Positions 25,950 through 63,641 of a stretch of 64,000 nt of DNA are shown piece after piece (the first letter of the stretch is position 1; every line of letters begins with the position of its first letter). The translations under genes were made by a program, and so were the position numbers. The DNA lies in contig OX597832.1 in the NCBI GenBank assembly GCA_951406725.2, forward strand, positions 6,758,001-6,822,000, in the 5' to 3' direction. A model generated the notes under the pieces. It was not told where the DNA came from. It was given only the letters and a program-made list of their open reading frames with translations, and made no database searches. Source of the stretch: Octopus vulgaris. Lineage: Eukaryota.

Positions 25950-26480
25950 TACCCCTTCGTCGAAGGATCCTATGAGCCTTCTGTATTTTCCCAACCCAGC
26001 CTCGCCCTCCTTCAAATGTGCCTGTAACCTACGCAATCTACTGGTCTATAGCTCCCCCCTCCATTCCAACCCTACCCAGATCCTTCCCTTGCTTCTGATC
26101 CTGCTGCCACACCTGTCCCTTCATCACTAACATCACCTCCCTCACCGGACCCAACCAGCATACTCTCTACATTAGGAACTCCTTCTCCTGCACTTCTTCC
26201 AGCCTTATTTACTGCATCAAGAGTAATCACTGCAACCAACTTTACATTGGTCACACAGGCCAGCAGACAGTCGAACGGTTCACCAAACACCTACGATATA
26301 CTTGTCTATGTATGAACACCCCTGTCACCCATCATTTTTGCTTGGCCAATAATTTCACCTCACATATCACTGTGTTTGGCCTTGCCCTACACAATGGATC
26401 CACCAACTCTAGATTCCAATTGGAACAGCATTACATTTTCACTCTACAAACCCAAACTCCTTTCAGACTCAACACAGCCC
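25950..26480 (+). mobile_element. Penelope-like element GIY-YIG endonuclease remnant
   Basis: Conceptual translation ...NLRNLLV...CCHTCPFI...FSCTSSSLIYCIKSNHCNQLYIGHTGQ...ERFTKHL...PVTHHF...RFQLEQHYIFTLQTQTPFRLN with an in-frame stop. Confidence 0.8.
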
Positions 26481-26880
26481 CTCCTCTCAATGTCTGTCCC
26501 TACAGTCTTCTTAAAAAAAAACTTTTTACCCTATCTTATTTTTTATCACTTTTTTATTATTTTGTTTATTTTTTATCTGGTTATTTTGAATTTTTATCAT
26601 TTATTCTTTTATTTGGTTATTTATTATTGGGTTATACCAATGTAAAATTTGTTTTATTTATTTATTACTATTTTATTCATCTATTTTGACTTTTTAAATT
26701 TTTTATTATCTATATATTCTATATTTATTTTTTATTTTTATTTTTTATTTATTTATTTCTGTTACTGATTTGTTCACATAATCTTTTTCCTTTGTTTTTA
26801 TATCACCAATTTTTTTTATTATTTATCATTTGAGATGATTTGAAAACACAATACCTAATAACCTAACAGTATATCTTTTC

Positions 26881-26969
26881 TACTCCTCTGATGAGATTTT
26901 GCCTAATACAATGATTTAATTATTGCCATTTAATCATTTAGGCTAAACTGAAACAGCTGTAAGAGAATA
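26881..26969 (+). ncRNA. Partly decayed type-I hammerhead downstream of Penelope-like ORF remnant
   Basis: CTGATGA 26888-26894, stem II gcctaa/ttaggc, GAAA-cagctg-TA 26950-26961; stem I mismatched. Confidence 0.65.
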
Positions 26970-27124: not shown

Positions 27125-28028
27125 TCATCTTCATTGACGTCATCATCTTTTAAAGTCCATTTTCCATGCTGGCATGGGTTGGACAGTTTGACCAGAGCTG
27201 GCAAACTGGAGAGCTGCACCAGGTTCCAGTCTGATTTGGTATGGTTTTTATGGCTGGATGCCTTTCCTAACACCAACCACTTTACAATGTGTGCTAGATG
27301 CTTTTAATATGGCACTGCTAGAGCACTTTTATGTTGCACCGACACAAGTGCTTTTTTCATGGCACTGGCATGAGAGCTTTTTATGTGGTACCAGCAGAGG
27401 ACTCTTGCAGGCTAATCCTCTTCACCAGGTGGGGGTGGCCTTAACACTTCTGCTGTGGAATACAGATCTTTCTGATCTGAGTATGGGTCTTCTTGAGTAT
27501 AGCAAGGTGCCAGGCATCCCAGTCCTTTGTCATCTCATCTGAAAGTTTCAGAATCTTGAAGCCATCCTTCAGTATTTTGTCCCATGTCTTCGTAGGTCTT
27601 CCTCTTCTACATGTTCCATCTACTTTGAGAGATTGGTACGTCTTTATGGAACTGTCAGCATCCATCCATCCGCATCACATGACCAAACCAGCATGGTGTT
27701 CTACCTTGCATACTGCATCTGATTCCTCTTATGCCTAACTTCTCTCTCAATACACTAGCACTCTGTCAAACATTACAAATCCAGCAGAGCATATTAGCCT
27801 CTCTAGCCTTCACATGTCTTCTGTATTTAGGACCCACAACTCACAACCATGTAGAATTGCTATCCATGTGAATATATCATACAACCTGCCCTTCACTCAA
27901 AGGCTAAAACCTTTGGTTGCCAGCAGAGGTAACAGCTCTCTGAATTTTCTCCACCCTATTCTTATTCTAGCTATTATGCTCTCTATACATCCTCCCCTAC
28001 TACTAATTTGGTCTCCTAGGTAACAGAA
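27125..28028 (-). mobile_element. Older RTE-type LINE 3' fragment
   Basis: VDGTCRRGRPTKTW; homologous to 20073-21345. Confidence 0.8.
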
Positions 28029-28085
28029 ATATATATGTATGTATAATATGGGTATGAGTAAGTATTTCATTTATGTCTTACGTAT

Positions 28086-28149
28086 TTATCGCTGACGAGG
28101 GGAAAATTCTTATGATGAATTAACTCCGAAATTGGGACCAATATGGTAA
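28086..28149 (+). ncRNA. Type-I hammerhead ribozyme (intact)
   Basis: Stem I ttatcg/tggtaa, CTGACGA, stem II gggg-aa-aattc...gaatt-aa-ctcc, GAAA, stem III ttgg(ga)ccaa, AUA triplet with cleavage after 28143. Confidence 0.82.
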
Positions 28150-28292
28150 TAAAGAAATTTTTTAGAATTTTCTATCGGCATGTTTCGAGACGCATAAATT
28201 ATAATGGTTATAGACAATTTTGTCTTTTTTCGGCATATTTGGCATTAGAATTTTTCTTTTGCCCTTATTTTATAAGTTGTATGTATAATATA

Positions 28293-28672
28293 CTAGCAGT
28301 ATCGCCCGGTGTTGCTTGGGTTTGTAAGGGAAATAACTATATAAGTATTTTTAGAGATGTAAAGTATAATAGCTATCTCAATATGGCTAACCACAAAGGG
28401 GGGGGTGTTACTGTAGCTTTTTACGTTCTGAGATTTAATAATAAATTTTTAGAGAGTTACTTCCCTTATATATGCCAAAAATGCATTAAAATGGGAAAAA
28501 TTGATGGTAAATTTTTTTTTAAATCGTAGACTCATCGTAGACGTGCGCTAATACCCAGAAGGGCTTGATATGAATCATGACTATAAGATACTGCACCGCA
28601 AAATGTGGGAGTAGTTAGGAATCTAAATCGTAGGAGACAGACAGCACACAACCTCACTTTTATATATAAAGA
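28293..28672 (-). mobile_element. Non-autonomous Helitron, second copy of the same family
   Basis: Same termini as 21436-21742, with an extra ~100-bp internal block and a small deletion. Confidence 0.88.

Positions 28673-29622: not shown

Positions 29623-63641
<34,019 letters not shown>

Follow-up and report, generated by a model that had tools for sequence, protein, structure and literature searches.

The window analysed here is a 64,000-nt stretch of the Octopus vulgaris genome (contig OX597832.1, positions 6,758,001 to 6,822,000). It contains a 231-nt insertion that carries a type I hammerhead ribozyme motif and is framed by an exact 14-bp direct repeat (Table 1). The insertion lies between a decayed LINE fragment, which we take from its motifs to be RTE-like, and a repeat that, judged by its ends, is presumably of the Helitron type. 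Homology to other copies of the same repeat family begins at 28048, which is numbered u1, and the window copy spans u1–u228 of a ~464-nt unit, corresponding to the hammerhead-bearing half; most other copies extend further upstream and many extend further downstream.

The 14-mer of the direct repeat sits at both junctions and overlaps the element by 2 nt on the 5′ side and by 1–3 nt on the 3′ side. It has no other occurrence in the window, is absent from the other unit copies compared and was found 0 times in 1,057,572 bases of other fetched loci. On this sequence evidence, the 14-mer is a target-site duplication (TSD) of an imperfect (TA)n tract between the LINE fragment and the Helitron-type repeat. 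The initial annotation had located the repeat correctly and offered two readings of it, a TSD or the tail extension of a pseudo-LTR (pLTR). The first holds and the second fails, as the family's actual tail, a segment of 88 nt, is missing from the window copy. Elsewhere, 12 of 102 loci passed a filter for a non-simple repeat of 8 or more, nearly all of them still microsatellite-like, and most other loci are flanked on both sides by simple (TA)n only; TSD frequency is therefore unmeasurable across the family.

Table 1 Features of the insertion, its hammerhead motif and its flanks (window positions).
Feature	Position	Strand	Basis or remark
Truncated unit copy without tail (u1–u228 of the ~464-nt ORF-less unit)	28048..28278	+	Homology to other copies
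Target-site duplication, left, 14 bp	28036..28049	.	Final 2 nt also match the element 5′ end
Target-site duplication, right, 14 bp	28278..28291	.	Begins at the short 3′ end of the family
Type I hammerhead ribozyme motif	28086..28149	+	Sequence and covariation across subfamilies; predicted cut after 28143
Stem I	28086-28091/28144-28149	+	Sequence
Core CUGANGA with N7 = C (CTGACGA)	28092..28098	+	Sequence
Two-part stem II with AA/AA internal loop	28099..28127	+	Private 3-nt loop duplication; one G-C to G-U change (28125)
Stem IIa	28099-28102/28124-28127	+	Sequence
Stem IIb	28105-28109/28117-28121	+	Sequence
GAAA	28128-28131	+	Sequence
Stem III, palindromic, 12 nt	28131..28142	+	Self-duplex of −12.3 kcal/mol including tandem G·A; no stable hairpin by itself
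A17 of the AUA cleavage site	28143	+	Sequence
Flank outside the element: decayed LINE reverse-transcriptase C-terminal fragment	27420..28028	−	
Flank outside the element: Helitron-type non-autonomous repeat	28293..28672	−	5′ TC, 3′ hairpin and CTAG, between A and T

The ~380-bp Helitron-type repeat on the right has 5,973 candidates, the best 40 of which match at 92–100%, and its TC and CTAG ends are sharp. Elsewhere in the window, a GIY-YIG remnant at 26090–26500 (+) lies upstream of a second, decayed hammerhead-like motif at 26881–26968 (+), with CTGATGA at 26888 and GAAA at 26950, a long stem II, a palindromic stem III and a poorly paired stem I; together, they are likely the 3′ end of another Penelope-like element (PLE) family. 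A 474-codon open frame at 31686–33110 (−), which has no Pfam match, is possibly a long host exon.

As the initial annotation had described, the full type I core, the three stems and the AUA site are all present in the motif, and its near-palindromic stem III is of a kind suited to pairing in dimers (Table 1). The elements that define a hammerhead are found here as the CUGANGA core, GAAA, a UH cleavage site and three helices, with stem I open, and the window hammerhead is predicted to self-cleave after its A17. The ribozyme of this copy is weakened. G-U replaces G-C at 28144, beside the cut, and at 28125, in stem II; a loop carries a 3-nt duplication, and an additional helix, Ib, is broken at 28153. 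The hammerhead fold scores −7.6 kcal/mol compared to −13.0 kcal/mol for the family majority. The retention of CpGs, also noted initially, holds in part, with two CpGs beside the cut site having been lost.

The Rfam search proposed in the initial annotation returned no hammerhead match for the window motif, at the gathering score or at E ≤ 10, isolated pieces of 64–76 nt show no folding advantage over shuffles (z −0.6 to −1.5), and a loose core pattern, which has 37 overlapping matches in the window, is by itself uninformative. Because Rfam is silent and the isolated piece folds like shuffled sequence, the case for the ribozyme rests on the family. In the 2.8-Gb genome, a 256-bp query gave 2,377 candidates (best 40 of 2,377 at 91–100%), a narrow pattern gave 357 exact matches and a core-plus-stem-III pattern gave 1,124, with 0 matches to the control of either pattern; distant hammerhead relatives were counted through pattern matches only. 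We mapped 110 loci, composed of the 30 best matches and 80 regions from the first 100 pattern matches listed, and a further 28 sister, 16 long and 20 other loci, or ~170 of >1,000 loci in all.

In an alignment of sister subfamilies, which share 73–94% identity, 95.2% of cells are paired, compared to at most 46% in slid controls. Six of 19 pairs and 38 cells have changed on both sides, in stems I and II, and 0 of 500 shuffles reach this cell count or the covariation score. Two of the five covariation measures do not beat the shuffles (pairs changed on both sides, 62/500; pair types, 258/500), and related sequences can outdo shuffles without structure, the core here being fixed by the search pattern. 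Helix Ib also covaries, between G-C and A-U. The changes in stem III are one-sided only, and all common variants remain self-complementary; 7 of the 8 commonest form no hairpin alone and give self-duplexes of −8.2 to −12.3 kcal/mol, behavior expected of dimer-type ribozymes (PMC4209133). A covariance model matches in the window only the motif from which it was built. With 1,124 genome matches against 0 in the control and with covarying stems, the motif exceeds chance, and by this comparison of copies the hammerhead is a real motif conserved through compensatory stem changes. The stem covariation that the initial annotation had asked for is present in the genomic copies. It is very improbable that the hammerhead arose by chance or lacks function within a SINE-like repeat and that the 14-mer is microsatellite noise, a reading that would suit the silence of Rfam, the weak fold of the isolated motif and the (TA)n on both sides of most other loci, where TSDs are unscorable, but that does not accommodate the compensatory changes in stems I, Ib and II, the self-complementarity of the common stem III variants, the restriction of free core variation to the one position N7 or a 14-mer that is unique and lies exactly at both junctions.

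The family unit has a tandem period of 464 nt. Two intact cores lie 458–476 nt apart in 10 of 154 loci, a set that includes loci picked for length. The largest tandem contains three ribozymes in an arm of ~1.25 kb at one locus; the longest other arms are 949 and 977 nt, and copies reach up to ~2.7 units. Long tandem arrays were not seen in the loci read, three ribozymes being the maximum. The unit has a GC content of 31.7%, its longest stop-free frame is 64 codons, with no ORF over that length, and it has no match to PLE proteins. The window copy, holding half a unit, is not the retrozyme monomer initially proposed, and by unit size a circle would measure ~465 nt instead of the ~240 nt expected from it, a product impossible from the window locus.

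Among main-family copies the N7 alleles are A (82), C (32) and G (23), and N7 is the only position of the hammerhead that varies at the subfamily level, in a set partly chosen by a pattern in which the other 5′ core positions and the first part of stem II are fixed. At 10 of 235 sites, 4 of them subfamily markers, the window copy departs from the family majority, and it lies ~2.6% from its subfamily, while copies on the same haplotype differ by 5.0% pairwise. These distances, typical of the family, suggest a copy of average age and not the young one first supposed. CpG transitions in the family (4.6%) are barely above other C/G transitions (3.5%), and CpG decay was rejected as an age clock. 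Two further loci, L236 (G000:C1:12586419) and L237 (G000:C1:134052707), have hammerhead-like motifs with a similar stem III and an unrelated stem II and flanks; neither has unit sequence or a PLE ORF nearby, and they were rejected as family members. Unit words are present in sequence runs of four coded organisms (A–D), in shares of 0.06–0.46, and the family may predate the split of these organisms; none of the runs listed with unit sequence is recorded as RNA. Family sequence is also present in assembled contigs of putative RNA runs, which reveal neither level, strand nor circles, and unit coverage there, relative to a larger run of unrecorded kind, is no better than that of neighbouring repeats. 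The literature searched, outside repeat libraries, subscription journals and supplements, contains no description of this hammerhead family or of a cephalopod retrozyme; the family may already be catalogued.

The ends of the copies carry a distinctive signature. The 3′ ends of 174 arms from 110 loci pile up at two sites, with end motifs at u228 and u316, 88 nt apart; in BLAST alignments, which extend past them into (TA)n, these ends fall near u241 and u325. Copies are mostly inserted in (TA)n tracts and are 5′-truncated, with scattered 5′ ends. Among the 226 arms whose 3′ end is canonical, 22 extend beyond the previous cut site, 9 start near the previous and 1 near the last, and there is no 5′-end pile-up at the cut site. 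Many arms are arranged head to head, and 38 of 38 classifiable pairs (51 in total) combine one short and one long end (binomial p = 3.6e-12), whereas unpaired arms have 31 short and 35 long ends. Two further head-to-head sets show one end of each kind in 9/9 (13 total) and 7/8 (10 total) classifiable cases. Overall, one arm ends at each 3′ site in 54 of 55 classifiable insertions, the 13, 4 and 2 pairs left out having an end outside both classes, whose limits were set after viewing the histogram. In the sole exception a later insertion appears to have interrupted the short arm. The two arms of a pair match at 197 of 208 diagnostic sites (95%), compared to 53% between loci. In 14 of the 38 pairs the arm with the short end exceeds the tailed arm in length and hence is not a fold-back copy of the tailed first strand; for these pairs, we rejected the view that inverted arms arise solely by fold-back self-priming.

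Two-site ends, truncation, (TA)n targets and head-to-head arms are the integration marks of PLEs, in agreement with the PLE or retrozyme context suggested initially, and on account of these marks a PLE-mobilised non-LTR retrozyme is the best reading of the family. In PLEs the tail lies between two internal reverse transcription start sites, both strands are primed and extended, and a dimer is predicted (Frangieh et al., PMC11167929); where inverted repeats or pLTRs are described, the tail is at one end only (PMC3846280, PMC8557442). The accounts of EN+ PLEs (PAc, PMC11167929; A. vaga Penelope, PMC3846280; PMC8557442) share with the present family two internal 3′ ends that define a tail, 5′ truncation, an inverted 5′-truncated arm, the one-sided tail, AT-rich or (TA)n targets, a hammerhead upstream of the start sites and an occasional TSD. 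By contrast, the unit has no RT or GIY-YIG ORF and no sequence link to the autonomous families examined, and its tail is 88 nt compared to the 30–40 bp reported for PLEs. In addition, PAc is described as showing no start-site difference between strands in vitro (PMC11167929), whereas paired arms here differ in 54/55 cases.

An autonomous partner PLE was not found; two families examined (29 loci each) have no DNA similarity to the unit, and further PLE families were seen in the genome as single copies only. PLE sequence is shared in 0 of 81 free 5′ flanks of the unit, with only unrelated repeats at the junctions, and in one case an unrelated PLE piece lies directly against an inverted arm. The GIY-YIG fragments found close to unit copies come from several distinct PLE families, none of them linked to the unit. 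At one locus (L012:1412-2253, G000:C21), a unit copy is followed by a short inverted piece and then by a GIY-YIG fragment of an older PLE family, a junction produced by insertion or template switch; this family was rejected as the partner because it has its own, different 3′ end in 29 other loci. The genome also contains a young, high-copy autonomous PLE (L055:1-2252, G000:C2:37913071-37916463, and L032-L060; 17,477 candidates), with 150 scored matches at 96–100% amino-acid identity, open frames of >800 codons and an RVT_1 domain. It has a 36-nt tail, (TA)n targets and the same two-end asymmetry in about ten loci, and its hammerhead has the U3-A8 core variant in 37/37 motif matches (partly overlapping loci), a core described for Schistosoma PLEs (PMC4209133). 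This family too was rejected as the partner, having its own 3′ ends and no DNA similarity to the unit.

These findings bear on the possibility that the unit is the pLTR of an autonomous PLE, now rare or extinct, and that the window copy is an ordinary 5′-truncated PLE insertion that stopped before the ORF. The unit does show the insertion features of PLEs, namely two 3′ ends with a tail, an inverted 5′-truncated arm and microsatellite targets, and every integration mark described above is a PLE mark. Moreover, PLE hammerheads are reported to sit in pLTRs, most as single motifs (PMC4209133), at one locus the unit and a GIY-YIG fragment are joined, and the loci read are ~170 of >1,000. However, an RT and GIY-YIG ORF between pLTRs is not present in the copies read; long copies continue into another unit, never into an ORF, the 81 free 5′ flanks share no non-unit junction sequence beyond unrelated repeats, and the GIY-YIG family of that one locus ends differently elsewhere. 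We consider this origin quite improbable, and the solo pLTR of the initial annotation is likewise unsupported, the 81 free 5′ flanks holding no upstream PLE ORF and the two PLE families examined lacking DNA similarity to the unit. Of the BLASTN expectations raised there, genomic copies and partial tandems were found, while linkage to RT/GIY-YIG ORFs was not in the copies read, apart from the fragment joined at L012.

The choice of template is less clear-cut. Divergence is 4.9% between tandem repeats of one arm, 4.3% between inverted arms and 5.0% between same-haplotype copies at other loci; the corresponding proportions of sites with rare variants in common are 0.63%, 0.53% and 0.07%. Rare-variant sharing within an arm is thus about nine times that between loci, which fits one monomer read more than once, with a wide spread between arms. 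Divergence of tandem repeats is uneven, at about 1–9% per arm, and some tandem arms may derive from linear tandem sources. The scattered 5′ ends without a stop at the cut fit a circle and also uncleaved RNA, and uncleaved RNA is reported as the dominant template in vitro (PMC11167929). For this step, the balance tilts modestly towards a cleaved monomer or circle over a linear RNA.

The strongest competing account differs from the preferred reading in the template step only. It retains the family and the PLE-type insertion but has an uncleaved linear tandem RNA as the template, with no circle and with the ribozyme retained for some other step, such as late cleavage with the help of protein. Consistent with it, 5′ ends do not pile up at the cut, some tandem arms differ internally by 7–9%, unprocessed RNA is described as the dominant PAc substrate and the PAc ribozyme as needing protein (PMC11167929). 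Set against this are the rare variants shared by tandem repeats, the arms of more than two units despite no long source arrays among the best 40 matches, and the predicted strong self-pairing of the circular monomer. Folded as a circle, the majority unit sequence is predicted to be strongly self-paired (z −6.2), and nine genomic monomers have predicted fold z values of −1.5 to −9.5, compared to −1.3 to +1.1 for three control repeats. Taken as a whole, a purely linear route appears less likely than not, though well ahead of a pLTR origin.

The family resembles metazoan non-LTR retrozymes as described (Cervera and de la Pena 2020, PMC7229834; Li et al. 2026, 10.64898/2026.07.22.740005) in having a tandem unit that bears one type I hammerhead and lacks an ORF, low GC, a predicted self-paired circular fold, a TSD of >4 bp, dispersed monomers and dimers, and PLEs in the same genome. 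The 464-nt unit is above the 170–400 nt given in PMC7229834 and inside the 51–972 bp given in 10.64898/2026.07.22.740005. In contrast to those retrozymes, the present family shows partial tandems only, with up to three ribozymes; fixed two-site 3′ ends and head-to-head arms have no description in the available portions of the two reports. In the latter, 1 of 9 Xenopus retrozyme dimers is reported to have cleaved in vitro. Compared to the dimer-type type I hammerheads of newt and axolotl retrozymes and the minimal hammerheads of PLEs (PMC4209133), the motif is alike in its palindromic stem III without a stable monomer hairpin, its 6-bp stem I and, in the main family, G10.1-C11.1. It differs from those described in having stem III arms of 5 bp around 1–2 central bases and a two-part stem II with an AA/AA loop, and in being unmatched by Rfam hammerhead models.

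Our preferred reading is that the insertion at 28048–28278 is a 5′-truncated, tail-less copy, with a 14-bp TSD, of an ORF-less ~464-nt non-LTR retrozyme that a Penelope-like RT/GIY-YIG protein likely mobilises in trans, and we hold it with good confidence. In the mechanism we propose, loci with two or more units would be transcribed, and two ribozymes would pair via the palindromic stem III and excise a monomer of ~465 nt that would likely become circular. AT-rich DNA would be nicked by a PLE protein, and reverse transcription would start inside the RNA at one of the two sites. If both target strands were nicked, each could prime at a different site, on the same RNA or on sister RNAs of one locus, giving two-armed insertions. 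The window copy would reflect a single priming at the proximal site that stopped after about 230 nt. Because it has a single weakened ribozyme and lacks the second unit, this copy is probably dead. A more specific version is put forward tentatively, its odds falling short of even: a PLE dimer would prime twice on a single circular RNA, protein-free and cut by the hammerhead, using each nicked target strand once and each of the two start sites 88 nt apart once. If true, such double priming would explain the one-sided PLE tail and would be direct genomic evidence that PLE machinery inserts animal retrozymes.

The single window copy is ordinary, and the family is of modest importance, through its integration signature. 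PLE mobilisation of animal retrozymes has been argued from co-occurrence and sequence trees; here an ORF-less hammerhead repeat bears the PLE integration marks themselves. With its tandem unit, absence of an ORF, fixed 3′ ends, (TA)n targets, head-to-head arms and covarying hammerhead, the family is, as far as DNA defines one, a non-LTR retrozyme that appears to work like a non-autonomous PLE. The near-absolute pairing of a short with a tailed arm yields a testable prediction for the use of PLE start sites on the two strands, and the unit RNA is small enough for a whole-molecule assay.
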